From: a virus
Lineage: Duplodnaviria > Caudoviricetes
Virus record (IMG/VR): IMGVR_UViG_3300006789_000022
Location: 1-61,800 of that record
Length of the DNA: 61,800 bases
Reading direction: 5' to 3' (one strand)
The translations under genes were made by a program, and so were the position numbers. Shown piece after piece: positions 1-51,672 of this stretch. Positions within the stretch are counted from its first letter, which is position 1. Every line of letters begins with the position of its first letter. The notes under the pieces were generated by a model, which saw only the letters and a program-made list of their open reading frames with translations, was not told where the DNA came from and made no database searches.

Positions 1-89
1 AACTCGTTGCGTGGGCCGAGCAGTATAGCCCCGATTACGCTGGGGCTGTAACGACATTACCCTGAACAAAAGCGACGAATAAGTGAACC

Positions 90-2458: not shown

Positions 2459-2852
2459 GTGCGCTTGTTCTTGTTTTGAAGGGGGCAGTTTTACTAAATA
2501 CTCTTTCCCCCCTAGTGGGTTCAAGCCCGAGCTATTTTTAATAAGCCCTAAAGATTTTCTGGGCCTCGCCACGTTTTTGGCTAAAGAAGAACGCACTACC
2601 GCGAGAGTTATTTTTAACAGGGGGGTTCCTTTTTTCAATCTTCCTCATCTGACGCTACAAGACGGCAGGGTCACAGAACACGCGGGAAGGCACAGGGCTA
2701 CGGTCTTGCTGGATAATGGTTACACAACTATGCCTGTCAGGATTTATTCGGTTAAAGACAAAGATTTTCCTGACTACATAAAAGCACAGGAAACCGCAAA
2801 AGACCCTGACTTCACGATCCCCCTGCCCACTGGCCTGACCCTTGACCCTTGA
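2445..2852 (+). CDS. ParB/Srx-like domain protein (135 aa)
   Basis: HAGRHRATVLLDNGYTTMPVRI matches the ParB/sulfiredoxin xGxHR...G...PV pattern. Confidence 0.5.
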   Translation: MREAKCACSCFEGGSFTKYSFPPSGFKPELFLISPKDFLGLATFLAKEERTTARVIFNRGVPFFNLPHLTLQDGRVTEHAGRHRATVLLDNGYTTMPVRIYSVKDKDFPDYIKAQETAKDPDFTIPLPTGLTLDP

Positions 2853-2875
2853 CCCCCCATCTGCTACTTTGAACC
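2842..2875 (+). promoter_or_regulatory. Sigma70-type promoter, probably giving a leaderless transcript for the 2876 ORF
   Basis: TTGACC(2842)-17 bp-TACTTT(2865) with extended TG; ATG 5 nt downstream. Confidence 0.55.
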
Positions 2876-3895
2876 ATGGCCACATTGACCGTTCAAGGCG
2901 TCGAGGATGCCCTGCTAGACGTATGCGGGTCCAAGGGTGCTAACTCCGCCCAGTTCCTGAAAGAACTGAATCTGGCCCTCCCACGCCTCTACAATATGGG
3001 CATGTGGCGCGACCTCGTCTTTGAGGATGTTGTCACCACCACGGCCAGCACGTTCACTATCCCCGACGATGCTGAGTCAATTATTTCGGCTCTTGTAGAC
3101 ACGGACGGGAGCACTACTGATTATTCTTACCCTCGCGCAGTCCGCAGCCAATTCCACGACTACCGACTGGCTGGGCGGGACGACACGGCTGGGGAGAACA
3201 CCATGGCTGCTTTCGGGATCGTGGACGACGGCTACTCAGCAACGGTCGAGGAGCCTGTGGATGGGAAGACCTATTCCTTGACCTTGAGCCCAGTCAGCCC
3301 CGCGGCACACCTCCCCGCATCTGGGACCGTTCATGTTACCTTTTCGGATGGGACAAACACCTCCGACCCCACTTCGCCCCATTCTGGTTCTGTGGGGGGT
3401 AAGTTTACTTGTGGGAGTGAGGCTAGTCTTATAACGCACCCGCATAATGTCGATATAACCAGCATCAGTGAGATAAGGGTGGGGACGGCTAACTTAACAG
3501 ACCCCGTTAAGTTAACTTGGGAAGAGACAGGATCTTCGACTTCTCTGGTCGCCGCCAATGATCTGCAAGAAGCCAACCAAGTCACCCGTTACCGCCGCTA
3601 CCGGATCGACAACAGGGATTCCAAGACCATGTCGCTGCGGCTGCTCCTCAAGCGGAAGTTCAAAACGCTGATCGACAGCACGGACGTTGTCTACATCTCC
3701 AGCCTCAACGCAATCAAACACGCGCTCCTTGGCTCCATTGCCGAAGAGAACGCAGACGTTGAGCGGTCCAATTACCACTGGTCCGTGTGCCGCGCCTTGC
3801 TCGACGAGCAACTGGACGCACACCGTGGCGCGGCCAAGCCCGCCATTAGATTTGATCCCTCTGGTGTGGGAGCCTACACCAGTAACATAATGTAA
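2876..3895 (+). CDS. Putative head-tail adaptor / tail tubular protein (339 aa)
   Basis: Helical N- and C-terminal segments flank a beta-rich core, as in podovirus adaptors; lies in the structural cluster. Confidence 0.45.
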   Translation: MATLTVQGVEDALLDVCGSKGANSAQFLKELNLALPRLYNMGMWRDLVFEDVVTTTASTFTIPDDAESIISALVDTDGSTTDYSYPRAVRSQFHDYRLAGRDDTAGENTMAAFGIVDDGYSATVEEPVDGKTYSLTLSPVSPAAHLPASGTVHVTFSDGTNTSDPTSPHSGSVGGKFTCGSEASLITHPHNVDITSISEIRVGTANLTDPVKLTWEETGSSTSLVAANDLQEANQVTRYRRYRIDNRDSKTMSLRLLLKRKFKTLIDSTDVVYISSLNAIKHALLGSIAEENADVERSNYHWSVCRALLDEQLDAHRGAAKPAIRFDPSGVGAYTSNIM

Positions 3896-11174: not shown

Positions 11175-12293
11175 TTAGGAGAGGGTGTGCCTCGCCTGAG
11201 ATGTGGTGACTATACCTGCTTCCACGCAGGCGTCAACAAATTCTTTAGAAATTCTTTTCTGATCTTCTTTTGCCCCCTTGGCTCCCACCGCCTTGGCGAG
11301 CTTTGCGACGGGCAAGTTAGCTGCTTCCAGCACCTCTTCCTTGTCCAAGCCGAACTGCTCCGCGATCTCCACCAGCCCCATGTTATCTTCCACCCGCTTG
11401 GTGGCCCCCATGTTCCTTAGACGTAAAGTAGGAAACTCAATACCGTTCTTAGCCATGTCCACGGCCCTCTTCTTCAGGCGGTCAGCCCAGTTGGAAACCA
11501 TCTTTGCGATGACCCATAGCTGTTCGACTACTTCGGGGTCTTCCACTTCATCGAGGTCAACGTCCGGCAGATCAGTATTGATCTTCTTGGCCACAGAAAC
11601 CACTAACCCACCTAGCGCGGGGCAAGCATCTTCGTGACGGCAGAACCGACAGTTCACTGTGGGGGTTAGGTCGGATAGCTCCGGTGTGCCGTCGTTCCAT
11701 TTAGGCCGGACTTCTTCTGCTTTCTTGATTGTCTCGGACAGTTTCCTGACAAGGGCGGGGATGTCTTCCCGCGTGAACGTGTGAAACAGCGTCTCGTTCC
11801 GAACGGGGACGTAGAATACAAACGTGATCTCGTCCAATTCTGGGAACCGCTGAAACGTGCCTACGGTGTAAGCCTGCGCCTGCCAGTTTTTTTCCGGTGG
11901 GTCGATCATTGAGATCCCCGTTTTGTAATCCGCTTGGATTGCTGTGTTGTCGTCAAAAACAGTCAAGCGGTCACACGTTCCCCAAGTTTCTGTCCCTTCC
12001 AGTTCAACGGTCAACTGGATCTCCTTGAAATCTTCGGTCTGCTTTCTCCCACTTTGGGCGTAGTTGGCGAGGAATGCTTCTTCCTCCTCCATTATCTGCT
12101 CATAGATTGAAACCTCTTCTTCGCTTTGGAGGTTGGAGGTGTCGTTTATTTCTAACGCCTCGTGTATCCGTGTCCCCTTTTCGGCAGCCGCGTTTGTTCC
12201 GCTTCTCCCGTGATACCCCGCACATCCTGCTACATACTTGAGCGATGATGGGGAGAATTCAGCGTGGTCTCTATCAGAGTGACTGTCTGGCAT
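11175..12293 (-). CDS. Cas4-like/DUF2800-type PD-(D/E)XK exonuclease
   Basis: HAEFSPSS..C, GT.IH, WGTCD, DYKTG, QAQAY and CRFCRHEDAC. Start moved from 12383 to ATG 12293 because of the upstream RuvC ORF and promoter. Confidence 0.8.
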   Translation of the reverse strand: MPDSHSDRDHAEFSPSSLKYVAGCAGYHGRSGTNAAAEKGTRIHEALEINDTSNLQSEEEVSIYEQIMEEEEAFLANYAQSGRKQTEDFKEIQLTVELEGTETWGTCDRLTVFDDNTAIQADYKTGISMIDPPEKNWQAQAYTVGTFQRFPELDEITFVFYVPVRNETLFHTFTREDIPALVRKLSETIKKAEEVRPKWNDGTPELSDLTPTVNCRFCRHEDACPALGGLVVSVAKKINTDLPDVDLDEVEDPEVVEQLWVIAKMVSNWADRLKKRAVDMAKNGIEFPTLRLRNMGATKRVEDNMGLVEIAEQFGLDKEEVLEAANLPVAKLAKAVGAKGAKEDQKRISKEFVDACVEAGIVTTSQARHTLS

Positions 12294-12328
12294 GGGGGCG
12301 ACTATACACCCTTCTGGCGGCCTGTCAA
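12294..12328 (-). promoter_or_regulatory. Sigma70-type promoter, leaderless-type, for the nuclease-SSB operon
   Basis: TTGACA-16 bp-TATAGT-7 nt-ATG on the minus strand. Confidence 0.6.
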
Positions 12329-38238: not shown

Positions 38239-38267
38239 TTAATAGGTAGTCAGTTTTAGGATGCGAG

Positions 38268-38297
38268 TAGTATAGCAGGTGAGTTGAATAGCGTCAA
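38268..38297 (-). promoter_or_regulatory. Sigma70-type promoter upstream of the helicase
   Basis: TTGACG-17 bp-TATACT with extended TG; gives a short leader. Confidence 0.7.
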
Positions 38298-39498: not shown

Positions 39499-40401
39499 TT
39501 ACTGGCCCCTCCCTTCGTTGGAAATGTCTTCCAGTTTCTGGAGCTTATTACGGACATCCCGTCGGTAATCCGATTGCTGTTTCAGAATCTTCTTCCGGTT
39601 CTTCCTGTAATAGGCCCGCGCATATGTGGCGTTCTTTCGGAGGATATCCTGAGCATCCGAGGTGGCCTCCTGCTCACGCTCCCCGTCGGGCCAGTCGAGG
39701 CCGAGGGCGTTGAGTCCCTCCCTCACATCGTCCAGAGATGCCGTCCCGAAGTGTGGCAGGCTGAGAAGATAGTCAGGGGTCTGACTGATCAACTGCCCGA
39801 GGTTGCAGATGTCGGCATCCTCCAATGCGGCGGTAGCATTCTTGCGGAGGTCGAGCCTACGGATGGAATCGTAGAGAGACGTTGCCCTCACGGCGGGGTC
39901 AGGTTCCTCGTCATCCCATGACTCGATGTTCTCGGCGAAGAGATCTGCGAGGAGGGGAGGTTGAACTTCCTCTTCCTCTTCTTCACGGTCGTCGATGGGG
40001 GCCGCGATAACCTCCGCGAGGGTGGGGACTTTCTCTTCTGACTCGTCAACAGAAACCGGATGCCACTCGGCAGTAGTGTAGGTTTTCCCCTCTCCCGCCG
40101 GAGTGTAGGTGCTTGTCGGCTTGGCGAACAGATCCGAGGAACGCTCGGTCTCGAAATTTTCGAGGGCCTCCTCAAGATGAGCCTTCTTCGCCTTGAAGCC
40201 CATGCCCGTCACATGGTTCAGGTGATGATCACGGAGTTCCGTGACGAGCCTGTCGGCGGCCTCGCGCTCGGTGAGCAGCATGTTTTTCATGTCCGCGAAT
40301 TTCTCACGGGACTCCAGTTGTTCGTCAGTCAGGCTCAAGAGCAGATCAAGACCAGCTTGAGTGTCCTTGAGGAAGGACCGGATAGATGTGGTGTTTGCCA
40401 T
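39499..40401 (-). CDS. Protein containing an RNA polymerase alpha C-terminal domain homolog
   Basis: SIRRLDLRKNATAALEDADICNLGQLISQTPDYLLSLPHFGTASLDDVREGL aligns without gaps to alpha-CTD ([51 protein letters not shown]). Confidence 0.8.
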   Translation of the reverse strand: MANTTSIRSFLKDTQAGLDLLLSLTDEQLESREKFADMKNMLLTEREAADRLVTELRDHHLNHVTGMGFKAKKAHLEEALENFETERSSDLFAKPTSTYTPAGEGKTYTTAEWHPVSVDESEEKVPTLAEVIAAPIDDREEEEEEVQPPLLADLFAENIESWDDEEPDPAVRATSLYDSIRRLDLRKNATAALEDADICNLGQLISQTPDYLLSLPHFGTASLDDVREGLNALGLDWPDGEREQEATSDAQDILRKNATYARAYYRKNRKKILKQQSDYRRDVRNKLQKLEDISNEGRGQ

Positions 40402-40436
40402 GATGATACTATAACAGAGGGGTGGGATTTAGTCAA
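40402..40436 (-). promoter_or_regulatory. Leaderless-type early promoter
   Basis: TTGACT-17-TATAGT-ATCATC-ATG, extended TG. Confidence 0.8.
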
Positions 40437-40478
40437 CAACTTTCTGCAAATAAATTAAGCGGCTGTTAACTGGAAACT

Positions 40479-40565
40479 TTATTTTTGAGTTAAGCTCTCC
40501 CGCTTCCGCCGGAGAACGAGGAGCAGGACGATGGGGACAAGGATCAGGAAGAGGGTTGCAGTCAT
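40479..40565 (-). CDS. Small membrane peptide (28 aa)
   Basis: MTATLFLILVPIVLLLVLRRKRESLTQK: single TM segment plus basic stop-transfer. Confidence 0.45.
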   Translation of the reverse strand: MTATLFLILVPIVLLLVLRRKRESLTQK

Positions 40566-40576
40566 GGTGTTTGGCG

Positions 40577-40882
40577 TTAGTCAATCCGAGCCTCGGAAAG
40601 TTCGTGCTCGCCACCGTCTTCATCGAGCACGGTGACGGTGGTGCTTTCGGGTGAGGTGGCAACCACCACTCCCCAAGTGCCGCCGTCGAAGGTGAGTTCG
40701 ATAGGGGTGGGGGGTTCGGGTTTGCACATCGCGGCCAAGGCTAACCTAGCCGGAAGAACAACTATCGAGTTACATGTGTCGCAACACTGGCCCGAGTCGA
40801 ACGGCCTCACTGGCTCGGGGTTGTTGCCCCACCCTACGAAGTGGTCGCCACAAAGGACACACATCCATGATTCGTTTTCCAT
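40577..40882 (-). CDS. Zn-finger-like hypothetical protein
   Basis: CVLC...GNNPEP...CCDTCN motif. Confidence 0.65.
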   Translation of the reverse strand: MENESWMCVLCGDHFVGWGNNPEPVRPFDSGQCCDTCNSIVVLPARLALAAMCKPEPPTPIELTFDGGTWGVVVATSPESTTVTVLDEDGGEHELSEARID

Positions 40883-40884
40883 GA

Positions 40885-41385
40885 TCAGTTAAGTAGAAGT
40901 TTCTTTTTCTCGTTACCCTCATCGTCCTCCTTGAGGACTATGTTCAGGCTCTTGAAATCTTCCCAGTGTCTCTCGTCCACCACCACGCGGTTACCTCTAC
41001 GGTCTGCTTCAAGCAGTTTGCTGGTGGCTGAGACCTCAAAGGAGTCAACCTCCTCGACGTTGCCGATGGCGTGGGTCAGGTCTACAACGTCTTGCGCCGA
41101 GACGTATCGCTCGCCACGGGGGGAGCCACAGTCACAGCCCTCAACGTCACACCGATCAGGGCGGACGGTCAGGACGAAATTGAGGGTGCCGCAATCATCG
41201 CACTCATGGAAATCTATGTCGTGCATTTGAAACCCTGCCTCATTGACAGTCGCTTCAAGTATGTCCTCCATGATACAGGACGGGTTCCTTGAGTTGGTTT
41301 CGTCAACCGGATAATCAGTGTCGATAGCACAACTGTTAAGCTCAAGGACGATGTTGAGGGAAAGGAACTCAGGTTGGAATTGCAT
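40885..41385 (-). CDS. Acidic Cys-containing hypothetical protein
   Basis: Tiled ORF with CDDC and CDVEGCDC. Confidence 0.6.
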   Translation of the reverse strand: MQFQPEFLSLNIVLELNSCAIDTDYPVDETNSRNPSCIMEDILEATVNEAGFQMHDIDFHECDDCGTLNFVLTVRPDRCDVEGCDCGSPRGERYVSAQDVVDLTHAIGNVEEVDSFEVSATSKLLEADRRGNRVVVDERHWEDFKSLNIVLKEDDEGNEKKKLLLN

Positions 41386-41387
41386 GA

Positions 41388-41585
41388 TCAGGATTGGTTG
41401 TCGGGGTTCTCTAGTTCGTCGAACTCCTTGGCAATCTGGTGTGCGTCGAAGTCGGCGTAGTCTCGGGGTCCATCGTGCAGGGAGTCCTTGATGTCTTGCA
41501 GGACTCGGGACACTACCTCGGGCCTCGGTCCCTTGGGACGGGCAGCCTCGAAGAGGTCGGTGATGCTTTGGTGGATGCTTGGCAT
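41388..41585 (-). CDS. Hypothetical protein (65 aa)
   Basis: Has its own leaderless-type promoter. Confidence 0.65.
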   Translation of the reverse strand: MPSIHQSITDLFEAARPKGPRPEVVSRVLQDIKDSLHDGPRDYADFDAHQIAKEFDELENPDNQS

Positions 41586-41620
41586 GGTGATACTATAACA
41601 GAGTGTAATGATTTAGTCAA
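41586..41620 (-). promoter_or_regulatory. Leaderless-type early promoter
   Basis: TTGACT-17-TATAGT-ATCACC-ATG. Confidence 0.8.
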
Positions 41621-41834
41621 CAACTTTCTTTGATTTATTTATTTCCGCATTGAGGGCGGCGTCAAATTCTTCCTCGCTCACGTTCTCAAGTGAGACGATG
41701 GGAGCACCAAGATCCCTGACTCCATCAGGGCGGGAGCCGTCTCGGCAAGACCAAGCTGTGCTCTTGCGCCCATCGTAGATGGTGGCCGTCCTATCGGCTG
41801 GGTTGTAGAAACCAAATATGTGGTCGTAGTTCAT
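41613..41834 (-). CDS. Hypothetical protein (73 aa)
   Basis: Its stop codon overlaps the -35 region of the next promoter. Confidence 0.6.
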   Translation of the reverse strand: MNYDHIFGFYNPADRTATIYDGRKSTAWSCRDGSRPDGVRDLGAPIVSLENVSEEEFDAALNAEINKSKKVVD

Positions 41835-41864
41835 GGAGCGTTAAGCGGAGATTTTATTTTTGAG

Positions 41865-42200
41865 TTAAGCTCTCTCCCCATCGTTGATGTGGTCGTCGGC
41901 TCTCCAGTTGTCCCAGTCTTCCTTCGTCCACTCCTCTTCCTCTTCCTCCTCTTCCTCCTCTTCCTCCTCCTCGGCAGACAGGATCACGGTCTCCGCCTCG
42001 GCGAACGCCTCGCGTTTCTTCTCGGCTTGCTCGGCCTCGTGCTCCGCGATGTAGTCGCGCATGGAGGAGAGCAGGGCGGCCTCGGAGATGGCAACGTGGA
42101 TGACCATGTCATCCTCGTAGGGGAGGAGGTAGCGGAAGCCCATCTTGCGGGTGGCGAGGACGAACAGTCGCAGCCACATTGTCTGAATTAAATCTCTCAT
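41865..42200 (-). CDS. Poly-Glu acidic hypothetical protein
   Basis: ATG 42200 preferred; long Glu run near the C-terminus. Confidence 0.6.
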   Translation of the reverse strand: MRDLIQTMWLRLFVLATRKMGFRYLLPYEDDMVIHVAISEAALLSSMRDYIAEHEAEQAEKKREAFAEAETVILSAEEEEEEEEEEEEEEWTKEDWDNWRADDHINDGERA

Positions 42201-42222
42201 GGTAGTTTCTAATGGTTGAAGG

Positions 42223-43746
42223 TTAGCCGACGTTGATGGCGACTCTCTCGCCGAACGGGTAGCAGGTGACACCGATGTTCTCGGGGGCGTGGTAGCCGAA
42301 GCACAGCCACAGGATGGGGCAGTAAGGCTCCCTCATGTCGTCCCAGTCCCAGCGACAGGTGTAGCCGTCGGTCAGGAAGATGATGCCGTCCGCGTTCGGT
42401 GCGTTCTCCTCGGCCCAGTCGAGGGCTGGCTTGAGTTGAGTCCCGCCCCCGCCGCCGAGGGTCTCGGGGAGTTCGCCTCCAGCGTCCACCTCGTGGGTCT
42501 CGTGGACCCGAGTGTCGCAGGGGACGATGTGAGTGAGGCGGGGCTGGAACTGGTCGAGCACCTCCTGCACCTTGTCGAGCATCGGACCCATCTTGTGGAC
42601 GTTGGAGCCGGAGGTGTCCACGAGGAACACAAGCTCGCCAGCTACCTTGGAGCCACGGGCGCGGCGGACCACGCCAGTCCGGTCGAAGGTGCGAGTGCAG
42701 AGTGGGCGGTCCCAGCCTTCCTCGGAGCGAGCCTGAAACCAGTTGACAAGGTGCTCGTCCCAAGGGACACGGTTCGTGGTCCGCTTCAGGTCGCTCGATG
42801 CGAACGTCCCCGCGCCGGAGCCAAGACCCTTGGTCTCGTTCACACGCTCCTCGTAGGACGCCTGCTGGACAGCCTCACGGTTCGCGGAGTCGAAGTCCTC
42901 AAGAGTCTCACCGTCCTCAAGCTCAGGCTCGCAGAAGTCATCGTGACCACCACCGAACTCTCCGGTGGTTGCCCCATCCCCCGAGCCATCAGGGGATGAG
43001 GCTTCACCATGCTCGTCCGACTCGGCTCCACCCTTGCCGGACTCACCTTCCTGCTCACCAGAATCGTTCTCGTCGCCGGAGTCACCACCGTCCTGATCAC
43101 CAGCCTCGTCGCCGGAGTCAGGGTTCGGGGTGCCGGAGCCGTTGCCAGCCTCGTCACCTTCCTCGTCGGACTGCTCGGAGCCACCGCTGTTCACGTTCAC
43201 AGGAGGAACGGGGTGGGTCTTGAGGATCTTCTCGACGAGTTGCTCGGAGGACAGGTCTTCCTTGTCGGTATCGTATAAATCTTTTTCGTCGATAAGGATA
43301 TCTCCGAGGGGAGTCATCACATCGAACGGCTCAAGTCCGGCGTCGAACATGGCCTGACGGGCCTCGTTGTTGAGATCGCGGAGCCACGCGTTGATGATCA
43401 GGTCGCTCGCCACGTTGGCAGCACACCAGTTCTTTCCCTTCCAGAATATCTGAGCACCGACCTCACGGTAGCGGCGGAATCTCTCAGCGTGGTTGAGCAG
43501 CAGGTGGCAGTTCTCGTGACCGACAACGAACGCACAGTTGGAAGCCTTGAGGGTGTTCAGAACGGCGAGGTTGTAGTAACCGAACCTCCCGTCCATCATG
43601 CCATACTTGGTGGCAGTTGTGTGCTTCATGCCTCGGAGTGAGGCGCGGTAGAGGTAGCCGACCCAGTTGCGGAGGTCGCGGACTCCGACCTCGAAGGGGG
43701 TGGTCCCCCTTGGGTGAACGTCGATGAAGTTGGAAGTGGCAGGCAT
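42223..43746 (-). CDS. DUF2201-type metallopeptidase-VWA protein
   Basis: GHENCH (HEXXH), NVASDLIIN, acidic Gly/Ser linker, MIDAS VDTSGS, GGGGT and LTDG. Confidence 0.85.
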   Translation of the reverse strand: MPATSNFIDVHPRGTTPFEVGVRDLRNWVGYLYRASLRGMKHTTATKYGMMDGRFGYYNLAVLNTLKASNCAFVVGHENCHLLLNHAERFRRYREVGAQIFWKGKNWCAANVASDLIINAWLRDLNNEARQAMFDAGLEPFDVMTPLGDILIDEKDLYDTDKEDLSSEQLVEKILKTHPVPPVNVNSGGSEQSDEEGDEAGNGSGTPNPDSGDEAGDQDGGDSGDENDSGEQEGESGKGGAESDEHGEASSPDGSGDGATTGEFGGGHDDFCEPELEDGETLEDFDSANREAVQQASYEERVNETKGLGSGAGTFASSDLKRTTNRVPWDEHLVNWFQARSEEGWDRPLCTRTFDRTGVVRRARGSKVAGELVFLVDTSGSNVHKMGPMLDKVQEVLDQFQPRLTHIVPCDTRVHETHEVDAGGELPETLGGGGGTQLKPALDWAEENAPNADGIIFLTDGYTCRWDWDDMREPYCPILWLCFGYHAPENIGVTCYPFGERVAINVG

Positions 43747-43781
43747 GGTGATACTATAACAGAGTGTGATGGTTTAGTCAA
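43747..43781 (-). promoter_or_regulatory. Leaderless-type early promoter
   Basis: TTGACT-17-TATAGT-ATCACC-ATG. Confidence 0.8.
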
Positions 43782-43799
43782 TATCTTTCTGATCTTTTT

Positions 43800-44738
43800 T
43801 TAGACAAGCCCACTCGCGGCGAGCTTGTCCTCAAGGGCGGCGGTCACCTTGGTGAACTCCTCGGCCTTGTCCTTCCGCTCGACGGGGTCGAGTCCGACAA
43901 CGTCGAGTCCCTCGACGAGGCTGGCAGCAGTGGCCGCAGCAGTCTCCAGTTCGGGGAGGTCGAGCAGGTTCTTCCCGCGCACCTCGGCGACCAGTTTCTC
44001 CACGGTCTTGAACTTGTCGGCGCGGAGCCGAGTCTTCTTCCCGTCCTCGGTCTTGGAGTCGGCGGCGACGAGCCGCTTGACGCACTCACCGAGGGCGTCG
44101 AGCAGGGACTCGACAGGCTTGGCGTGGGCCGAGAGAACCTTGGCCTTGGCAGACTCCTCGGCCTTGAGCTTGATCCGCTGGACCGTCTCGGCCAGCACGG
44201 TATCGAAGATTTTAGAATCCGAGATAGTGGTCTCGATGTCGAACCCGAGTTCGCTCCGGCGGAGGAACCGATCCACTGTGGGATACTCCACGCCCTCTCC
44301 GAACACGAGCATCTCCTCCTTGCCCCGCTCCTTGAGAGCCTCCCAGTTGCGGCGGATCTCGGCGTTGCACTTGTCGATGCTGATCTTTGCAGCGTTGAAG
44401 ATCTCCTCGAAACGGTCGAAGTCCTGCACTCGACAGAGGTAGGTGTTCGGGCGGCCAGTCTTTGCCAGACCACGGTAGCCCCGCTTAGGGTCACCAGCCA
44501 CGATGTCCTTCTTGAACTGGTTGACGAAGGACCGCGCCGTTCCAATGGCAGTGTCGGTGGCGGGGAGGAAGCGGGAGTTCGCCGACAGGAGTTTCTTGAG
44601 TCCGGCCCTCTCCTCGGGATCGACCTGATCGAGCAGGACTTTCTTCGCGTTGGGGTTGGTCCCCGTGATCACGTAGGACGGGTTGGCGAGGTGGATCTCG
44701 ACGAGCGAGCGGAGGGAGGAAGATTTGATTTCGAGCAT
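43800..44738 (-). CDS. Helical protein, DUF3150-like partner of the AAA/VWA pair
   Basis: Size, helical character, YP motif and position between the AAA and VWA genes. Family call is tentative. Confidence 0.5.
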   Translation of the reverse strand: MLEIKSSSLRSLVEIHLANPSYVITGTNPNAKKVLLDQVDPEERAGLKKLLSANSRFLPATDTAIGTARSFVNQFKKDIVAGDPKRGYRGLAKTGRPNTYLCRVQDFDRFEEIFNAAKISIDKCNAEIRRNWEALKERGKEEMLVFGEGVEYPTVDRFLRRSELGFDIETTISDSKIFDTVLAETVQRIKLKAEESAKAKVLSAHAKPVESLLDALGECVKRLVAADSKTEDGKKTRLRADKFKTVEKLVAEVRGKNLLDLPELETAAATAASLVEGLDVVGLDPVERKDKAEEFTKVTAALEDKLAASGLV

Positions 44739-44773
44739 GGTGGTAGTGTATCAGATAGAGTTTAAGTTGTCAA
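44739..44773 (-). promoter_or_regulatory. Leaderless-type early promoter
   Basis: TTGACA-17-TACACT-ACCACC-ATG. Confidence 0.8.
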
Positions 44774-44798
44774 CTATTTTCTTGGATAATTTTTAGGG

Positions 44799-46004
44799 CT
44801 AGGCGACGAGACCCTTCAGGTGGAGAGCAGATGGGTGGGCGAAGATGGGGTTGTCCCCGTCACCCTCGGGCTGAGTGTGAGCGGCGAGGGTGGAGAACAC
44901 CCACGCTCCAAGCTCGGGACTGCATCCCTCGAAGAGGTCGAAGGCCCAGTCCCACTGGCCGGAAGAGATGGCAGCAGGGTAGTCCTTGCCTCCCTCGTTC
45001 AGGGCGATGCGAGCGGCGGCGAAAGCCACGGCGGGGTGACGGTGCTTGGGAACCTCGGCCATAGTCTTGCGACCCTCGCGGACCTCGGTCACCTCCGGCC
45101 CGATCACGAGCACGGTCTTGATGAGGCTGACCATGTCATCGACTACGGGAGTCGGGATGCGGGATGCAGCATGGAGGGCGAAGAAGTCTACGTCCTTGAT
45201 GGAGTCCCAGTCGGGGAACATCCTGAGCACACCTTCCCATGTCCGGCCAGAGCACACGGCCCCGCCAGTGTAGCGGGACGGCTTGTCCTCGCCCTTGACC
45301 TTGCCAGTCCACGGGTTGAGACCCTCGCCCTGAGTCTCCACGCCTTGCCTGAAGAAGTTCAGGTAGGCCCAGACAGGGCTGCCCTTGAAGGTGGGGGCGG
45401 TGTGATTGAGGAAGTCATCGACCGAAAGTTCAAACCGATACTGGCTGCACCGTGCAGCGTCAGGCTGGGAGAGTTCCCGCCCGTTCTCAACATCGTCGAG
45501 CCGCCCGTTAAACGTGATCATAAACCTCACGTTAGGGCCGACCTTGTGGACCCCGATGTAGCGGTCCTGCCCGTCCGGTGCGTAGAGAGCGGGACGGTAT
45601 GCCTGCTTGATCTGGCCGGACGCGGCCTGCCACTCCTCCAGAATGACGAGGATAGGCTTGTCGCCCACGGTCGCCCAGACCGGAGCCTCCTCGGGCTTGA
45701 TGGACACCGAACGGTAGTCACCGTTGCCCTCGTGGTGAGGGACTTGGATACCACGAGCAGTCTCCTCGTGGACTCCGGCACAGTTGAAGGTGACGATCCC
45801 GCCCTCGTGGTTCGGGTCACGGGCATCAGCCCACGAGATGAACTGAGCAGGGATGCCGAGTTCCTTGGCAACCTCCTTGCCGGACGAGGACTTGCCTCCT
45901 CCGGTGGGGCCGCCGACTGCGAGGACCGAGCCGGAGCGTTCGGCCATTCGGGTTGCGGCGGGGACGCCGGAGAAGGAGAGTTTCGGTAGAGAAGTTTCAA
46001 GCAT
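44799..46004 (-). CDS. AAA+ ATPase (MoxR/dynein-related type)
   Basis: Walker A GPTGGGKS, Walker B ILVILEE, sensor ITFN, SGRTWE; next to a VWA gene. Confidence 0.8.
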   Translation of the reverse strand: MLETSLPKLSFSGVPAATRMAERSGSVLAVGGPTGGGKSSSGKEVAKELGIPAQFISWADARDPNHEGGIVTFNCAGVHEETARGIQVPHHEGNGDYRSVSIKPEEAPVWATVGDKPILVILEEWQAASGQIKQAYRPALYAPDGQDRYIGVHKVGPNVRFMITFNGRLDDVENGRELSQPDAARCSQYRFELSVDDFLNHTAPTFKGSPVWAYLNFFRQGVETQGEGLNPWTGKVKGEDKPSRYTGGAVCSGRTWEGVLRMFPDWDSIKDVDFFALHAASRIPTPVVDDMVSLIKTVLVIGPEVTEVREGRKTMAEVPKHRHPAVAFAAARIALNEGGKDYPAAISSGQWDWAFDLFEGCSPELGAWVFSTLAAHTQPEGDGDNPIFAHPSALHLKGLVA

Positions 46005-46058
46005 GGGAGTAGTGTATCAGCTAGGTGTTAAGTTGTCAAATGTTTTCTTGAATTATTT
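46005..46058 (-). promoter_or_regulatory. Leaderless-type early promoter with A-rich UP-like repeat
   Basis: AAATAATTCAAGAAAACAT-TTGACA-17-TACACT-ACTCCC-ATG. Confidence 0.85.
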
Positions 46059-46280
46059 TCTGAACTTGAAAGGCACGGCGCGTTGGACTGCATCGAGCAG
46101 GCCCCTGCTGTAGAGGCAGGTGAGGACGCGAGTGGTCTCCTCAAGGTCAGGCACGATACCGTTCTGGTAAGGGTGCTGGGCCTTGAGTTCATCGACGATG
46201 CGGTCGAGTGAGTCGATCACGGCGACGAGATCCTCGGTCGGGATCGGGAGTTCAGGGGTAGGGTCGTGGGAATCAGGCAT
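46053..46280 (-). CDS. Hypothetical protein (75 aa)
   Basis: Stop codon supplied by the promoter repeat; leader ACATTTACCCAGTTACCATC. Confidence 0.65.
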   Translation of the reverse strand: MPDSHDPTPELPIPTEDLVAVIDSLDRIVDELKAQHPYQNGIVPDLEETTRVLTCLYSRGLLDAVQRAVPFKFRK

Positions 46281-46300
46281 GATGGTAACTGGGTAAATGT

Positions 46301-46558
46301 TTAGGCGATGTCGAGGGCGTATGCGTTCCGCAAGTGGTTCTTGTGACGGTCGAGAACGTGGTCCGCCTCGTTCAACTGCTGCTGGAGACTCAACATGTGG
46401 AGGTCAAAGCGTATCCGCTGTTCGGTGCTCATCTCCCTGTGCTTGATAAGGTTCTTTGATCTGATGATCTTCCTACGGATGTTCTTGCAGTCGATGTTCG
46501 CAAGATACATTTTGTGAGTGTCGAGCATTTGGTTGAAGTCGTAATCGTTCATGGGCAT
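46301..46558 (-). CDS. Hypothetical protein
   Basis: ATG 46558 follows the same ACATTTACCCAGTTACCATC leader repeat. Confidence 0.6.
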   Translation of the reverse strand: MPMNDYDFNQMLDTHKMYLANIDCKNIRRKIIRSKNLIKHREMSTEQRIRFDLHMLSLQQQLNEADHVLDRHKNHLRNAYALDIA

Positions 46559-46586
46559 GATGGTAACTGGGTAAATGTTTCTGGGG

Positions 46587-46871
46587 TTAAGCGGAGGGAC
46601 CGTGATGGGTGACGCTAGCGAAGGACAGGGTCGCAGCCTCGTTATCACTATCGAAGAACTCGTCGGTGAACCGGAACCCGTTGGGGTGGGTTGTGCTGGG
46701 GCGAATCCACTCGGGGCGAACGAACTTCTGCCCCGCGTAGTAACCGTCGAAGGCTTGAGCTTCCCCCCTGTTGAGGAACAGCACCCACCCTTGGGGTTCC
46801 TCGTTAGTCTGGACGGCGTGGACGTTGATCGGCATGAAAGGAAGGGTTCCGGTGAAGATTATTCTGGGCAT
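46587..46871 (-). CDS. Hypothetical protein
   Basis: ATG 46871 follows CATTTACCCACTTACCATC, a variant of the leader repeat. Confidence 0.6.
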   Translation of the reverse strand: MPRIIFTGTLPFMPINVHAVQTNEEPQGWVLFLNRGEAQAFDGYYAGQKFVRPEWIRPSTTHPNGFRFTDEFFDSDNEAATLSFASVTHHGPSA

Positions 46872-46899
46872 GATGGTAAGTGGGTAAATGATTCTGGGG

Positions 46900-47544
46900 T
46901 TAAGCGGCGGCGGTCTTGTTGCCCCATGGCAGGCCGAAGTTCTCGGCGCACACTGGCCCGAAGCCAGCGGCAAGGGACTCGGTGGTGGTCAACTCCCGCC
47001 GACAGAAGCAGCAGTTGCCGGAGGCGTGGCCGTGTTCCGCCGCCACCTTGGCGGGGTCAGCGGCGAAGTCCTTCACCAGTTGGACGACCTCGGGGGTCGC
47101 ACCCCGAGCGGGGTGGAAGGCACCATCCTTGATCACTCCGAACCAGCCTGCCCCGAACTCGGGAGCGGCGACGGTGATGGAGCCGTGGTGCTTGGACCGA
47201 GGCCCAGCCTTTGCCACCTTCAGGGTGACGGGACCACGAGTCAGGATGAACTTGGGGAACTTCAGCTTGGCCGAAGCGGTGGCGAAGATGGCCTCGATGG
47301 CGGAGGCATCGACCTTGACGGGCGGGGCCTTGGCCTCGGGAGTGGCGACTCGGTGGAGCCAGAACTTGCGAGCGGCGGACAGGTCGCCCCACTTGTTGAA
47401 TGCCTTGGCGAGATCCTTGGCGAAGGAACTGGCGTCGGGGTCAGCGAAGACGGCAGCGGCGGCCTCGGCGTCAGTTGAAAACTTGGAAGTGAATCCGGCG
47501 TGGGTCTTGCCGGAGGCGGAGGTGATGGAATCGAACTTGAGCAT
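46900..47544 (-). CDS. Protein with C-terminal DUF6011-type zinc finger
   Basis: GNCCFCRRELTTTESLAAGFGPVCAENFG. Confidence 0.75.
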   Translation of the reverse strand: MLKFDSITSASGKTHAGFTSKFSTDAEAAAAVFADPDASSFAKDLAKAFNKWGDLSAARKFWLHRVATPEAKAPPVKVDASAIEAIFATASAKLKFPKFILTRGPVTLKVAKAGPRSKHHGSITVAAPEFGAGWFGVIKDGAFHPARGATPEVVQLVKDFAADPAKVAAEHGHASGNCCFCRRELTTTESLAAGFGPVCAENFGLPWGNKTAAA

Positions 47545-47598
47545 GACGGTAGTATAGCAGGTGGTTAGAGAATTGTCAAATGTTTTCTTGAATTATTT
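47545..47598 (-). promoter_or_regulatory. Leaderless-type early promoter with UP-like repeat
   Basis: Repeat-TTGACA-17-TATACT-ACCGTC-ATG. Confidence 0.85.
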
Positions 47599-47847
47599 TT
47601 GGGGCGGCTTGATGCGGACAAGATCACGGGCCATCCGCTCAACGTCAGGGTAATTGCCGAGAGCCTCGTGATCATTCTCGTTGCTCCAAGGGATCAGGAA
47701 GCGTCGGAGTTCGGTGAGGGAAACGCGGCGGAAGAGACCGAGGCCACTTCTCTCAACGTCACGAGTGAGCTTGTTGGCTTGCTCGGTGAAGGGAGCGATG
47801 GACTTGGTAGCGGCGGCGTCGATGGCAGACTGGAGTGGAGTAGGCAT
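47593..47847 (-). CDS. Hypothetical protein (84 aa)
   Basis: Single gene bounded by promoter repeats on both sides. Confidence 0.7.
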   Translation of the reverse strand: MPTPLQSAIDAAATKSIAPFTEQANKLTRDVERSGLGLFRRVSLTELRRFLIPWSNENDHEALGNYPDVERMARDLVRIKPPQK

Positions 47848-47901
47848 GATGGTAAGGTATCAGAAAGGTGTTAAGTTGTCAAATGTTTTCTTGAATTATT
47901 T
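47848..47901 (-). promoter_or_regulatory. Leaderless-type early promoter with UP-like repeat
   Basis: Repeat-TTGACA-17-TACCTT-ACCATC-ATG. Confidence 0.85.
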
Positions 47902-47907
47902 TTGGGG

Positions 47908-48222
47908 TTAGGAAACCTCCACCTTGATCCCGAGGGCGGTGTGAGTCAGGTCCACCTTGCGGGTGCGTCCGGTGACACCGTTGATCACATAGAGGGAAGC
48001 CCTCCTCCAGCCGAGGCGGTCATCGAGGTAAACGCGGCCCTTCTTGAAGGTCGAGCCGTGCTTGCCAGCGATGGCCGTCAGGGAGCGCCCGAGCTTCTCC
48101 TTCCAGATGGAGTTGCTCATCCCGAACTCGTTGCGGGCGGGGATGGCTGCCTCCATGATGGAGATTGCGGACTGGGCGGTCTCTTCAGTGAAGAGCGGGG
48201 CTGGGATGGCTTTAGCAGGCAT
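47908..48222 (-). CDS. Hypothetical protein (104 aa)
   Basis: Single gene bounded by promoter repeats. Confidence 0.7.
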   Translation of the reverse strand: MPAKAIPAPLFTEETAQSAISIMEAAIPARNEFGMSNSIWKEKLGRSLTAIAGKHGSTFKKGRVYLDDRLGWRRASLYVINGVTGRTRKVDLTHTALGIKVEVS

Positions 48223-48276
48223 GGTGATAAGGTAACAGAAAGGTGTTAAGTTGTCAAATGTTTTCTTGAATTATTT
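48223..48276 (-). promoter_or_regulatory. Leaderless-type early promoter with UP-like repeat
   Basis: Repeat-TTGACA-17-TACCTT-ATCACC-ATG. Confidence 0.85.
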
Positions 48277-48282
48277 TTGGGC

Positions 48283-48591
48283 TTAGGAAACGGGGGCCAC
48301 TCTTGTCCATCCGACGGGGGCGCAGACCCACTTGGCAGGGCGATGAGCTTTCGGGTGATCGACCTCGACGATGTCATCGACCGAGAGGGACCGGAGGTTC
48401 CCGAGACGGTAGGCGGCGGCGATGGGCTTGTCCTCTTCGTTGAGGAACTCCTCCGGTGCGTTGAACATATGGAAGGCTCGGTCGCAGGCGGCGGGACGGC
48501 TGGTGCTGACGGTGTCAACGTAGGAGAAGACGGCTTTGTCGGGGTCCACAAGGTCGGTTCGGAAGGCAACGTGGAAGATGTTTACGATCAT
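48283..48591 (-). CDS. YodL-like domain protein
   Basis: AFHMFN...RSLSVDDIVEV...CAPVGW resembles the YodL RSLSVxD...GF/W signature. Confidence 0.6.
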   Translation of the reverse strand: MIVNIFHVAFRTDLVDPDKAVFSYVDTVSTSRPAACDRAFHMFNAPEEFLNEEDKPIAAAYRLGNLRSLSVDDIVEVDHPKAHRPAKWVCAPVGWTRVAPVS

Positions 48592-48641
48592 GGTAGTTGG
48601 GTATGGTTGGTAGTTTAGGTTGGTGAGATTTCGGGGCGGGG

Positions 48642-49028
48642 TTAGCCCTCGATTTTATCGAGGGTTTTCTGGGTTACCTTTCGCAGTTCAAGAAGTGCGT
48701 TGAACTTCCGGCGGTATGCGTCACCGAGTCCGACTACCACTGGCCTGATGTAGTCGGAGTCGAAGAGGTCGCGGCAACTCTTAGCTGCACGCTCCGCGTT
48801 TTCCTTGTTGTCGAAGACTACTGCACCGGAAGGTCCGCCGCCGAAATTGTGTCCGCCGTCTTGGGCAGTGAGGCAGGCACTCTGGGTCGGGTTGTCGTTG
48901 GCGACGACAACCCAAGCGTTGTTGGCGACACGGTTGGCGATCTTGTAAATCTCAATCTGCTCGTTGATCAGGTCGAGGCTTTCTTGTGCGGCGGCGTAGA
49001 GGGCGGCGGAAGTAGTATTAACTGGCAT
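48642..49028 (-). CDS. Hypothetical protein (128 aa)
   Basis: Has its own leaderless-type promoter. Confidence 0.7.
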   Translation of the reverse strand: MPVNTTSAALYAAAQESLDLINEQIEIYKIANRVANNAWVVVANDNPTQSACLTAQDGGHNFGGGPSGAVVFDNKENAERAAKSCRDLFDSDYIRPVVVGLGDAYRRKFNALLELRKVTQKTLDKIEG

Positions 49029-49082
49029 GGTGGTAAGGTATCAGATAGGTGTTAAGTTGTCAAATGTTTTCTTGAATTATTT
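49029..49082 (-). promoter_or_regulatory. Leaderless-type early promoter with UP-like repeat
   Basis: Repeat-TTGACA-17-TACCTT-ACCACC-ATG. Confidence 0.85.
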
Positions 49083-49682
49083 CTGGGCCTTCTTCGCGTG
49101 GACCCAAGCGATGAAGTCGTCGAGTTCGTCCGCCGGAATGTCCACCAGCTTGAGGCCAGCCCACTTCTCGGGGACACCTTGGCTCAGGTCGAAGTCGCGC
49201 CGCCAGTTGGCCTGACGGTCGGCCTCGACTTGGTAGCCCTCGACAACCCAGACCCCTTGCACCTTGCGGCGGTCCACCTTGCGGGGATCGGTATCGACGA
49301 TGGTCGCACCGTCACGGTCCAGCAGGAGGACATGGCGCTCGACCAGCACGAGGTAGCGAGCGTCAGGGGCATCGTTCAGCTTGCGGAGGAGGGGCCGGAT
49401 CTTGGCGACCGAGGGGAGATCCGCATGAAGGCGGCGTAAAGATTTCATCTTCCCGTTGGCTTGCTCGGCCCGATAAGTCAGCTTGCAGGCACTCTTGCGG
49501 GACCGGACTGAGAACCCACCGCGCCGGAGGATGCGCTTAATGTCAGACATATGACCGGAGTAGTGGTAGGTGCTCGGCGGGATGCCAAAGTGAGCGATGA
49601 CCGAGGAGGTGCAGACCGTCTTTCGGCGGCCCGAGGCGTGGGTGATGTGACCGGAGAGGTGGGGAGTGGAGAGAGTAGGCAT
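49077..49682 (-). CDS. Basic hypothetical protein (201 aa), possible Cys-His papain-like fold
   Basis: TVCTSSVIAHFGI and LVLVERHVLLLD...D resemble C39-like cores. Fold call is tentative. Confidence 0.55.
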   Translation of the reverse strand: MPTLSTPHLSGHITHASGRRKTVCTSSVIAHFGIPPSTYHYSGHMSDIKRILRRGGFSVRSRKSACKLTYRAEQANGKMKSLRRLHADLPSVAKIRPLLRKLNDAPDARYLVLVERHVLLLDRDGATIVDTDPRKVDRRKVQGVWVVEGYQVEADRQANWRRDFDLSQGVPEKWAGLKLVDIPADELDDFIAWVHAKKAQK

Positions 49683-49716
49683 GGTAGTGGTAGTATTCAG
49701 GATTCAGGATTCGGGG

Positions 49717-49965
49717 TTAGCCTTGACGGCGGATCATCTCAGCGTCGAGGAGGGCCAGCTCGGCCCTCAGTTGATCCAAGGCAATGGCGTGAATGGGGTG
49801 GGGTGGTTGTGCCTCCTCCTTGGCGAAATTCTCCCTCGTAAAGTTCAGGAGCCACTCCAAGTCCTTGTCCGACCACTCCATAAGCTCGGCCCCGCTGAAG
49901 GAGGTCCGAATCTTACGGGGGGAACGAAGGGCCGAAAGGCGGGCGATGGTGTCAACTCTGCTCAT
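49717..49965 (-). CDS. Hypothetical protein (82 aa)
   Basis: Flanked by A/C-rich leader repeats. Confidence 0.65.
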   Translation of the reverse strand: MSRVDTIARLSALRSPRKIRTSFSGAELMEWSDKDLEWLLNFTRENFAKEEAQPPHPIHAIALDQLRAELALLDAEMIRRQG

Positions 49966-50004
49966 GGTGATAGTCAGGTATGGTTGGTGGTTCAGGATTC
50001 GGGA

Positions 50005-50262
50005 TTAAGCAAAGCAACTAGGCTGGACCCAGTCTTGTCCGGTCTCATCGTTGAGGGCATCGCAGATATCGGACTTGGTCCGACCGACCTTGACCGTGGT
50101 GTAGGTTGCGCTGGTCAGGATCGCGGCCCAGTCGGCGAGGTCCGTTCTTCCCGCTTCAAGGGCGGCCTCGTTCACGGCGAGGTGGGCCTCGTCAAGAGTG
50201 GGGAAGTAGGCGTAGGTGTTGGCGGCGAGGGAGGAGGTGTAGGATGCGAGGATCAGATTCAT
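50005..50262 (-). CDS. Hypothetical protein (85 aa)
   Basis: Flanked by A/C-rich leader repeats. Confidence 0.65.
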   Translation of the reverse strand: MNLILASYTSSLAANTYAYFPTLDEAHLAVNEAALEAGRTDLADWAAILTSATYTTVKVGRTKSDICDALNDETGQDWVQPSCFA

Positions 50263-50312
50263 GGTAGTCAGGTATGGTTGGTAGTTTAGGTTGGTGAGAT
50301 TTCGGGGCGGGG

Positions 50313-50570
50313 TTATCGGCCAGCGTGGACGGCGTCGAGGGCCTCTTGAAAGGTGCCATCAGCATGACGTTGGAGTAAGTCGGCGGCCTCGGTGATGATC
50401 TTGCGAGCGGCCCAACGGCCCTCGACCTCGGCCTCGGAGAGGCTATCCCAGAGTGGGTGATTGTCGGATAAGACATCGACGAGGGAACCGATGGCCTCGT
50501 TGAGGACATCGAGTTCGGCGTAGAGGGCGTCGGAGGAGGGGCGGCGGTCGGAAGTAGTAGTAACTGGCAT
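50313..50570 (-). CDS. Acidic hypothetical protein (85 aa), first gene of the early run
   Basis: Has its own leaderless-type promoter. Confidence 0.7.
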   Translation of the reverse strand: MPVTTTSDRRPSSDALYAELDVLNEAIGSLVDVLSDNHPLWDSLSEAEVEGRWAARKIITEAADLLQRHADGTFQEALDAVHAGR

Positions 50571-50605
50571 GGTGAAACTATACCAGAAAGGGGGCTTATC
50601 GTCAA
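50571..50605 (-). promoter_or_regulatory. Leaderless-type early promoter
   Basis: TTGACG-17-TATAGT-TTCACC-ATG. Confidence 0.8.
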
Positions 50606-50641
50606 TATCTTTCGGTCACTTAAGGTATCTTTTTTCCCTCA

Positions 50642-51048
50642 CCCTGTAACCTGTTGAGTGTCAATGGGTTACAGGGATTGGTCATCTGATCACCCTCGGA
50701 TCAGGGGTCAGGATAGAGGGTGCAGGGTGCCGGAAACCCCTTGAAAAACAGGGTCGAAAGGGTCCGAAATCCCTAACAGAAACGGCTTTAAGTGCAGGTT
50801 TCATAGCACCATGAATCGGTGTAACGTGTTGAGGGTCAAGGGGTTACAGTCTAACAGAAACTGTTAGATTCTGTTAGAGACGAGTTGTAACTTATTGAGC
50901 ATCAATGAGTTATGATGTATATACAATGTATTGAATCGTTTGAATTGGTTCCGAGGGTCAAGACCCCCGAGAGGGGGTCAAAGCCCGTAGCGGGCCTCCT
51001 AGGGGCCTTAAAATGCAAGTGTAACTCGTTGAGGCTAAGTGGGTTATG
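50642..51048. repeat. Four copies of a 29-bp imperfect palindrome TGTAAC-N3-TTGAG-N2-TCAA-N3-GTTA(CA/TG)
   Basis: Copies start at 50645, 50820, 50886 and 51020; the last has a degenerate right arm. Confidence 0.85.
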
Positions 51049-51205
51049 ACTGAGGATCTAACAGACAGGGGCCGAGGGGGAGTGGCTCAAGCCCTACGTT
51101 TCAGGGGGCCGGAGCAAGGGGTCAGGGTGCAGGGATCGGGGGCCTGCCAAGGCCAGCCCTCCCCACCGAATCCGGCAGCCTGAGCCATGCAGCCCGAGGC
51201 CGGAA

Positions 51206-51300
51206 GCCGGAGCCATGGTAAGGTGAGCAAGGTAGTCAGGATTCCCGAACCATGGTGCCGGAGCCATGGTAAGTGCAGCAGGATAGTCAACATTCCCGAA
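51206..51300. repeat. Two imperfect 44-bp direct repeats
   Basis: GCCGGAGCCATGGTAAG...TAGTCA..ATTCCCGAA at 51206-51249 and 51257-51300. Confidence 0.85.
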
Positions 51301-51408
51301 GGGACGCCACCCCCCACTGCTCACCTTTTCGTCGCCGCCCCCCTCCATATATATCTCTGTGTGTGAAAAAATTTGACTAATATGGTATGGCTGCTTTAAT
51401 TGACGGGT

Positions 51409-51672
51409 ATGGCTAACGAATCCTACTACGAACGAAACAGGGAAGCGCGGTGCGCCTACCAGCGTGAATACTACAAGAACAACAAAAATCGCATCAACAA
51501 GAAGCGACAGATCGACGAGAGCACCGACCCCGAGAAAGCGAAGCGAAGGCTGGCCTACAATAAAGCCTACTACCGCAAGCACCGGAAGCGGCTTTTGGCC
51601 GAGCGGGCAGAACGCTACCGCGAACTCAAGGCTGAACGTGAGGCGGCAAGAAGGCAGAATTTGCAAACCTGA
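51409..51672 (+). CDS. Basic Tyr/Arg-rich helical protein
   Basis: Repeated YY[EKR]xNx motifs like those in helical extensions of phage HNH proteins; ATG 51409. Confidence 0.6.
   Translation: MANESYYERNREARCAYQREYYKNNKNRINKKRQIDESTDPEKAKRRLAYNKAYYRKHRKRLLAERAERYRELKAEREAARRQNLQT

Follow-up and report, generated by a model that had tools for sequence, protein, structure and literature searches.

Ten transcription units of an uncultured marine phage (Duplodnaviria; Caudoviricetes) begin with a complete sigma-70-like promoter whose -10 hexamer ends exactly six bases before the ATG of the first gene, and we consider it probable that these units yield 5'-AUG mRNAs whose translation needs no leader. 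The activity of the promoters, the position of the transcription start site (TSS), the leaderless mode of translation and the early timing are predictions from sequence. The DNA analysed, referred to below as the window, is the full IMG/VR record IMGVR_UViG_3300006789_000022 (61.8 kb, linear, CheckV 100%, 55.6% G+C). Of the 24 sequencing runs listed as containing this stretch, none is of RNA. All ten sites lie between 36.7 and 50.6 kb, in a leftward block that comprises some 24 open reading frames (ORFs), most of them small and without known function.

Promoter-ATG junctions in the leftward block

We searched the window for TTGAC-N15-TG-N-TANNNT-N6-ATG and obtained 10 exact matches, all on the minus strand and all at the ten starts named in an earlier sequence-only reading of this DNA. 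None was found in 100 dinucleotide-preserving shuffles or with the reversed pattern, and the ten promoter-like sites of invariant 6-nt geometry described by that reading are therefore confirmed at every coordinate. The -35 is TTGAC[T/A/G] and the spacer 17 bp throughout, with TG-N ahead of a -10 hexamer that is TATAGT at four sites, TACCTT at three, TACACT at two and TATACT at one. The six-base discriminator ends in C in every case, which gives a C(-1)A(+1) junction, and the ATG is always the earliest ATG, GTG or TTG of its ORF. Over the ten cassettes the 22 nt upstream of the -35 average 79% A+T, compared with 44% for the genome, and thus form the A/T-rich tract at about -57 to -38 that is expected of an UP element, for which binding of the alpha subunit is only putative. 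The previous stop codon lies 27-60 nt before the ATG, so that the intergenic region is approximately the cassette itself. The cassettes, each with its promoter-ATG site and unit, are as follows.

P10: 50568..50627, minus strand (site 50568-50605); A/T-rich tract, TTGACG-17-TG-N-TATAGT-6-ATG; ORF 50313-50570, 85 amino acids (aa); first unit of the block
P9: 49026..49085, minus strand (site 49026-49063); UP-like tract, TTGACA-17-TGaTACCTT-6-ATG; ORF 48642-49028, 128 aa; the unit includes ORF 48283-48591
P8: 48220..48279, minus strand (site 48220-48257); TTGACA-17-TGtTACCTT-6-ATG; ORF 47908-48222, 104 aa
P7: 47845..47904, minus strand (site 47845-47882); TTGACA-17-TGaTACCTT-6-ATG; ORF 47593-47847, 84 aa
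P6: 47542..47601, minus strand (site 47542-47579); TTGACA-17-TGcTATACT-6-ATG; ORF 46900-47544, 214 aa, DUF6011; then three ORFs without a Shine-Dalgarno (SD) sequence, to 46053
P5: 46002..46061, minus strand (site 46002-46039); TTGACA-17-TGaTACACT-6-ATG; ORF 44799-46004, 401 aa, ATPase-like
P4: 44736..44795, minus strand (site 44736-44773); TTGACA-17-TGaTACACT-6-ATG; ORF 43800-44738, 312 aa
P3: 43744..43803, minus strand (site 43744-43781); TTGACT-17-TGtTATAGT-6-ATG; ORF 42223-43746, 507 aa, DUF2201 metallopeptidase/VWA-like; then ORFs 41865-42200 and 41613-41834
P2: 41583..41642, minus strand (site 41583-41620); TTGACT-17-TGtTATAGT-6-ATG; ORF 41388-41585, 65 aa; then ORFs 40885-41385 and 40577-40882; the ATG is only 27 nt past the upstream stop, so the promoter overlaps the end of the upstream gene
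P1: 40399..40458, minus strand (site 40399-40436); TTGACT-17-TGtTATAGT-6-ATG; ORF 39499-40401, 300 aa, with a domain like the C-terminal domain of the RNA polymerase alpha subunit (alpha-CTD)

The earlier reading had spoken of ten early genes, each with a promoter of its own. The promoters do precede ten genes that come first in a transcription unit, but these are ten among about 24 genes of the block and the units are not single-gene units; 'early' is a term suggested by gene content.

A -10 hexamer that ends six bases before the ATG, together with a C-A junction, makes the A the expected +1, and RNA polymerase should therefore start there. Leaderless operons of Mycobacterium and of further 'group C' genomes are called from a Pribnow box that lies 6-8 nt ahead of the gene (PMC6028130; also PMC3160421). 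In Deinococcus radiodurans, reporter and transcript work identified TANNNT 6-7 bp before the ORF as the -10 of leaderless genes; expression rises strongly when a -35 lies 17 bp upstream, and the box found most often is TACACT (PMC12340547). Differential RNA sequencing placed 47% of the mapped gene TSSs of D. deserti exactly at the start codon (PMC4007540). A -10 box at this distance (6-8 nt) from the ORF is thus an accepted signature of leaderless transcription (PMC6028130, PMC12340547), and because all ten window sites carry TANNNT at 6 nt, the leaderless reading is well supported. The coding ends agree: over their first 40 nt, the ten ORFs have a folding energy of -2.2 kcal/mol compared with -9.1 for windows from the gene bodies (Wilcoxon p=0.002, 10 genes) and contain 13% rather than 28% G, and these unstructured, G-poor 5' ends argue that the ATGs are real starts.

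We then relaxed the pattern to TTGACN, a 16-18 bp spacer and TANNNT, which gave 18 sites in the window: the ten above, two further junctions (at 2876 and 12293), two promoters with a leader (helicase, 30 nt; ORF 10512-11147, 61 nt) and four sites inside or far from genes that look like chance. Three of these deserve description.

Exonuclease-gene junction, outside the block: 12291..12328, minus strand; TTGACA-16-TATAGT-7-ATG; the true start of the gene is probably 12293 (372 aa)
Weaker junction: 2842..2878, plus strand; TTGACC-17-TGcTACTTT-5-ATG; ORF 2876-3895; the promoter part is also present in the related genome G001
Helicase promoter, a counter-example: 38239..38297, minus strand; TTGACG-17-TGcTATACT, then a 30-nt G-poor leader; helicase gene 36940-38238

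A similar 5-7 nt spacing had been claimed for four additional starts, of which 2876 and 12293 stand, in weaker form. The terminase-gene start at 14009 has TATAAT-5-ATG without a -35, and we rejected this TerL junction as a conserved leaderless site because the -10 is absent in the relative G002. At 52628 the box reads TACAAG and so falls outside TANNNT. The small ORF that begins there (52407-52628, minus strand) is apparently membrane-targeted, with a lipoprotein-like signal MKLHIIAASAACILFGASC.

Conservation of the spacing and choice of the start site

The motif scan of related genomes that the earlier reading had suggested was carried out on relatives that are metagenomic throughout: two IMG/VR genomes, 16 metagenome loci with the alpha-CTD-like gene, and eight more IMG/VR loci found via the helicase. 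Junctions were counted in the window plus 20 related loci as unique TTGACN-16..18-TANNNT-to-start strings. The 6-nt geometry holds, accounting for 30 of the 53 unique junctions; 7 nt is seen in two, 5 nt in one and 9 nt in one, the helicase promoter contributes four at 14 nt and four at 30 nt, and the remainder are scattered. All 34 junctions at 5-9 nt have ATG as the start codon and leave no space for an SD sequence, 31 have C at -1 and 28 have TG ahead of the -10. For the alpha-CTD-like gene itself, TTGACT-17-TATAGT/TATACT adjoins the ATG in 15 of 15 loci (10 at 6 nt, 5 at 7 nt), among proteins that range down to about 45% identity and have Met1 in common.

When the -35 was relaxed, seven sites emerged in five more distant relatives (49-54% G+C; helicase 76-80% identical). 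The spacing is 6 nt in three of them and 9 nt in one, and the promoters are unlike those of the window (e.g. TTGCAA-17-TACATT and TTGCAA-16-TAGAAT). The same relaxation brought the total to 44 unique junctions at 5-9 nt, which fall into 11 families of similar spacer sequence; the modal spacing is 6 in nine of these, 7 in one and 9 in one. Because nine of the 11 families share the 6-nt value, the distance is constrained and has not simply been inherited.

Could transcription miss the A by 1-3 nt and begin, say, at the G of the ATG or a few nt upstream, so that the RNA is non-coding at the ATG or bears a tiny leader and translation begins elsewhere? In E. coli, a C-rich discriminator can move the start site downstream, a point that counts against a start at the A, and some relatives have 7 or 9 nt in place of 6. 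Nevertheless, initiation favours a purine at +1 that follows a pyrimidine, and the C-A junction at all ten window sites, with C at -1 also in nearly all of those counted with the relatives, fits this preference. In addition, the start-site signatures of the ORF 5' ends run from the ATG, and the N-termini of the alpha-CTD-like family are conserved from Met1. We regard such a shifted start as very unlikely.

It is also conceivable that the motif is not a host promoter at all, but the binding site of a phage protein or the promoter of a modified polymerase, sigma-70-like by resemblance only. The presence of a phage alpha-CTD-like protein, which may tamper with the host RNA polymerase, lends this some colour. 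However, the match takes in every promoter element (UP-like tract, -35, TG and TANNNT) at the canonical distances, including the 17-bp spacer, and the relatives keep exactly the positions that contact sigma, namely TTG of the -35 and, within the -10, the T at position 1, the A at position 2 and the T at position 6, which makes the idea highly improbable.

The leaderless mRNAs of the earlier reading are therefore favoured by the 6-nt spacing, the C-A junction, the exclusive use of ATG and the retention of the spacing in diverged relatives, while transcription from the A stays a prediction. We propose that each of the ten units of the leftward block would be driven by a promoter for the host primary-sigma RNA polymerase, in which a UP-like tract rich in A/T is followed by a near-consensus -35 and, after a 17-bp spacer, by an extended -10. 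RNA polymerase would start at the A of the ATG and place the first gene of the unit on a 5'-AUG leaderless mRNA, which ribosomes would read without a Shine-Dalgarno sequence or leader. The later genes of the units, and any read-through RNA, would use a second SD-independent mode that relies on G-poor, unstructured leaders and 5' coding ends. The products would be small, mostly unknown proteins together with the ATPase, the DUF2201 protein and the alpha-CTD-like protein. A separate idea, that an antisense RNA acts against shared leaderless 5' ends, was rejected: the ten ends are alike only over ATGC, and complements are scattered and 9-11 nt long.

Possible read-through RNA and probable recombination at the cassettes

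Several observations weigh against the leaderless reading, in addition to the discriminator effect mentioned above. The ten sites comprise about four cassette families of look-alike sequences within the window and so are not independent events; this shared ancestry means that the invariance within the window overstates independence. The helicase promoter is of the same class and has a leader of 14, 17, 20 or 30 nt among the relatives, and the leaderless design is thus optional in this lineage. The three most distant loci (L038-L040; about 40% helicase identity, 40-44% GC) contained no promoter-ATG junction. Both the start-site rule of the host RNA polymerase and the capacity of the host for leaderless translation are assumptions. 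A scan of the window for intrinsic terminators returned 13 terminator-like sites compared with 15.0 expected, two of them on the minus strand and neither at a unit boundary; with the units not convincingly terminated, read-through RNA that carries a leader could also serve for the translation of nine of the ten first genes. Lastly, the 6-nt discriminators (ACCACC, ATCACC and similar) resemble the bases that precede internal, leadered ATGs, which fits their use as RNA.

The last two points lead to the main rival, which can coexist with leaderless expression. The cassettes would be promoters and recombination joints, protein would be made mainly from long read-through RNA in which the promoter sequence serves as a G-poor, SD-less leader, and the juxtaposition of promoter and ATG would be a by-product of compaction and cassette copying. 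Apart from the lack of convincing terminators between units, this account draws on internal genes whose translation evidently proceeds without SD in C/A-rich contexts of the same sort (...ACC ATG), on intergenic gaps equal to the cassette length, and on homology breakpoints at cassettes with whole units gained or lost. Compaction does not, however, predict one exact distance, which is found in most spacer families, unrelated sequences included. P10 is the first unit, with no other unit before it from which to read through, and a strong promoter that ends 6 nt before an ATG would give a 5'-AUG RNA regardless. We therefore judge it unlikely that read-through accounts for the arrangement in place of leaderless expression.

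The role of the cassettes in exchange can be considered separately, and these ~60-nt sequences appear to act as homologous-recombination joints through which related phages swap entire units. When the genes were compared one by one with nine related loci, a mosaic emerged in which neighbouring genes are 46% to 96% identical. Blocks of DNA homology begin at 47604, 46059 and 41629, the upstream edges of cassettes P6, P5 and P2, and units that are not shared match the relatives over cassette-length stretches only. Units P7, P8 and P9 (47593-49028) have no homologue in the nine loci; between the same cassettes, related genomes carry other genes (the P7-P9 region compared with L012, L031, L024 and L015).

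T4-type phages contain comparable elements, the promoter-early stem-loop (PeSL) cassettes, for which modular shuffling has been described and at which relatives differ by insertion, deletion and replacement (PMC2839356). PeSLs are likewise short repeated cassettes with a strong sigma-70-like promoter, located between small non-essential genes where relatives vary (PMC2839356). Two PeSL features are found here, namely a strong sigma-70-like promoter repeated between small genes, and breakpoints of insertion, deletion or replacement at the cassettes; the third, a stem-loop terminator in the cassette, was not seen in the terminator scan of the window. PeSLs have a stem-loop terminator and leadered genes, whereas here the promoter adjoins the ATG and no stem-loop was found, and the present phage is not T4-like.

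Translation without SD, the alpha-CTD-like protein and the host

An SD core (GGAG, GAGG or AGGA) at -18 to -4 precedes only two of the 46 other, non-leaderless genes, compared with 14% of background windows, so leadered phage genes too must presumably initiate without SD. The 20 nt before starts contain 15% G compared with 29% for the genome, the region from -20 to +30 around starts is G-poor and lacks structure, and the internal genes have 5' ends that are unstructured like those of the ten. Leaderless starts are accordingly one of two SD-independent modes here and not an escape from SD-dependence. The suggestion that leaderless genes are freed from initiation dependent on SD and ribosomal protein S1 thus loses its force, because the leadered genes are also SD-less. 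It had further been suggested that a phage ADP-ribosyltransferase (ART) or kinase could disable normal initiation. Pfam searches of about 60 ORFs, including the whole 5394-aa protein described below, detected neither domain. A phage that blocked S1-type initiation on leadered mRNAs would also impair its own replication and structural genes, given that these lack SD as well. The scarcity of SD may be a clue to an SD-poor host.

Other features of translation starts were noted. ATGCC(T/A), encoding Met-Pro, is a frequent start in the window. A repeated unit of about 20 nt that ends in ...TTACCATC-ATG is found three times at internal junctions (46281-46300, 46559-46580 and 46872-46895), and one of about 50 nt that ends in ...ACTACC-ATG twice (48592-48641 and 50263-50312); neither of these units contains an SD sequence or a recognisable promoter. 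By analogy with these junctions, the ORF at 46301 probably starts at 46558 and not at 46552.

The first gene of unit P1 (39499-40401, minus strand) encodes the 300-aa alpha-CTD-like protein, which matches Pfam PF03118 (E 1.5e-7). Residues ~175-235 of its AlphaFold model have a predicted local distance difference test (pLDDT) score of 86-89, and the top Foldseek hits are all RNA polymerase alpha-CTDs, at a root mean square deviation of ~1 A over 55-60 residues; a helical N-terminal domain, an acidic linker and a basic C-terminal helix are also present. There are 21 clusters of homologues in marine metagenomes. The gene is only 46-47% identical to its G001/G002 version, in contrast to flanking genes that are 87-92% identical. 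Residues that we take to be the DNA contacts of alpha-CTD are, on our reading of the alignment, not kept in the phage protein. For this reason, binding of the protein to the UP-like tracts was set aside, and left as a reading of low probability. More speculatively, in a lineage that is wholly SD-independent in two modes, the protein might serve as a decoy or adaptor and lure the host's RNA polymerase off UP-dependent promoters, including the phage's own early cassettes, to bring about an early-to-later switch; we hold this to be doubtful.

In the search for a host, scans of genome contigs with the helicase and with the alpha-CTD-like alignment found no relative. One alpha-CTD-like homologue is in a metagenome-assembled genome labelled Gemmatimonadetes, and among solved structures the domain is closest in sequence to mycobacterial RpoA (E 2.6e-6; E. 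coli 2e-3). These hints are too weak to name a host. A third weak hint is that TANNNT with a TG extension is typical of Actinobacteria and Deinococcus-Thermus, yet leadered genes in these groups use SD (PMC6028130), unlike those of the present phage.

Juxtaposition of promoter and ATG is already known from other bacteria and phages; what is particular here is a complete promoter in an SD-less genome of a marine phage. For Deinococcus-Thermus and Actinobacteria (GeneMarkS-2 'group C'), the literature describes the same TANNNT 6-7 nt before the ATG, the absence of SD and a -35 at 17 bp (PMC12340547, PMC6028130, PMC3160421, PMC4007540), and the commonest D. radiodurans box occurs at two of the ten window sites (PMC12340547). 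The bacterial leaderless promoters are mostly without a -35 and accompanied by SD at leadered and internal genes. Here, by contrast, a near-consensus -35 is present in all cassettes, together with an extended -10 and A/T-rich DNA upstream, and there is almost no SD elsewhere.

There are also phage precedents. Cluster O mycobacteriophages (the Corndog group) have at least eight SigA-like promoters, of which PL1, PR2 and PL2 are predicted to be leaderless (PMC4351075), and the middle and late transcripts of Thermus phage phiYS40 are reported to be leaderless, which has been linked to changes in IF2/IF3 (review PMC3594737). Both resemble the present phage in having several host-type promoters with +1 at the start codon, as predicted (PMC4351075) or reported (PMC3594737). 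They are unrelated to it in sequence, with no DNA match and a DNA polymerase of no more than 27% identity, and the leaderless classes of phiYS40 are middle and late. A paper on phage AR9 remarks that leaderless transcripts are common among phages (PMC5312081), whereas phiKZ is described as having none (PMC8244752).

The finding opens no new mechanism. If the leaderless reading is correct, it provides the start codons and transcription map of an abundant uncultured marine phage group that has no cultured relative, and extends the fusion of promoter and ATG beyond the Actinobacteria and Deinococcus-Thermus phage systems in which it was described. Such a fusion in an SD-avoiding genome would be a usable clue for host prediction, and the cassettes would offer compact, strong expression parts free of a ribosome-binding site.

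The genome encodes a terminase, an amidase, a DNA polymerase, a primase-like protein, an exonuclease, a RuvC-like protein and a helicase; no tRNA genes were found in the window. It has no DNA match in the phage collection searched, and its family-A DNA polymerase is at most 27% identical to that of any cultured phage. Our literature searches, none of them aimed at the group, turned up no paper on it. A single ORF of 5394 aa (20367-36551, plus strand) occupies a quarter of the genome, and its sole Pfam match is DUF7178, at about residues 2666-2857. The end of unit P2 (~40488-40565, minus strand) could encode a hydrophobic peptide of about 25 aa that is apparently membrane-targeted.

Upstream of P10 there is about 800 bp of non-coding DNA (50606-51400). 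An imperfect palindrome about 27 bp long, GTAAC..TTGA-N3-TCAA..GTTAC, is present there four times (~50647, 50821, 50887 and 51022), and G-rich direct repeats lie at 51180-51290; this DNA may be an origin or operator region. Beyond it, on the plus strand, an 87-aa basic ORF (51409-51672) carries two YY(R/K)(K/N)(N/H)(R/K)-type motifs that resemble the C-terminal helix of the alpha-CTD-like protein, and is preceded by a promoter-like TTGACT ... TG-N-TTTAAT that ends 7-8 nt ahead of its ATG.

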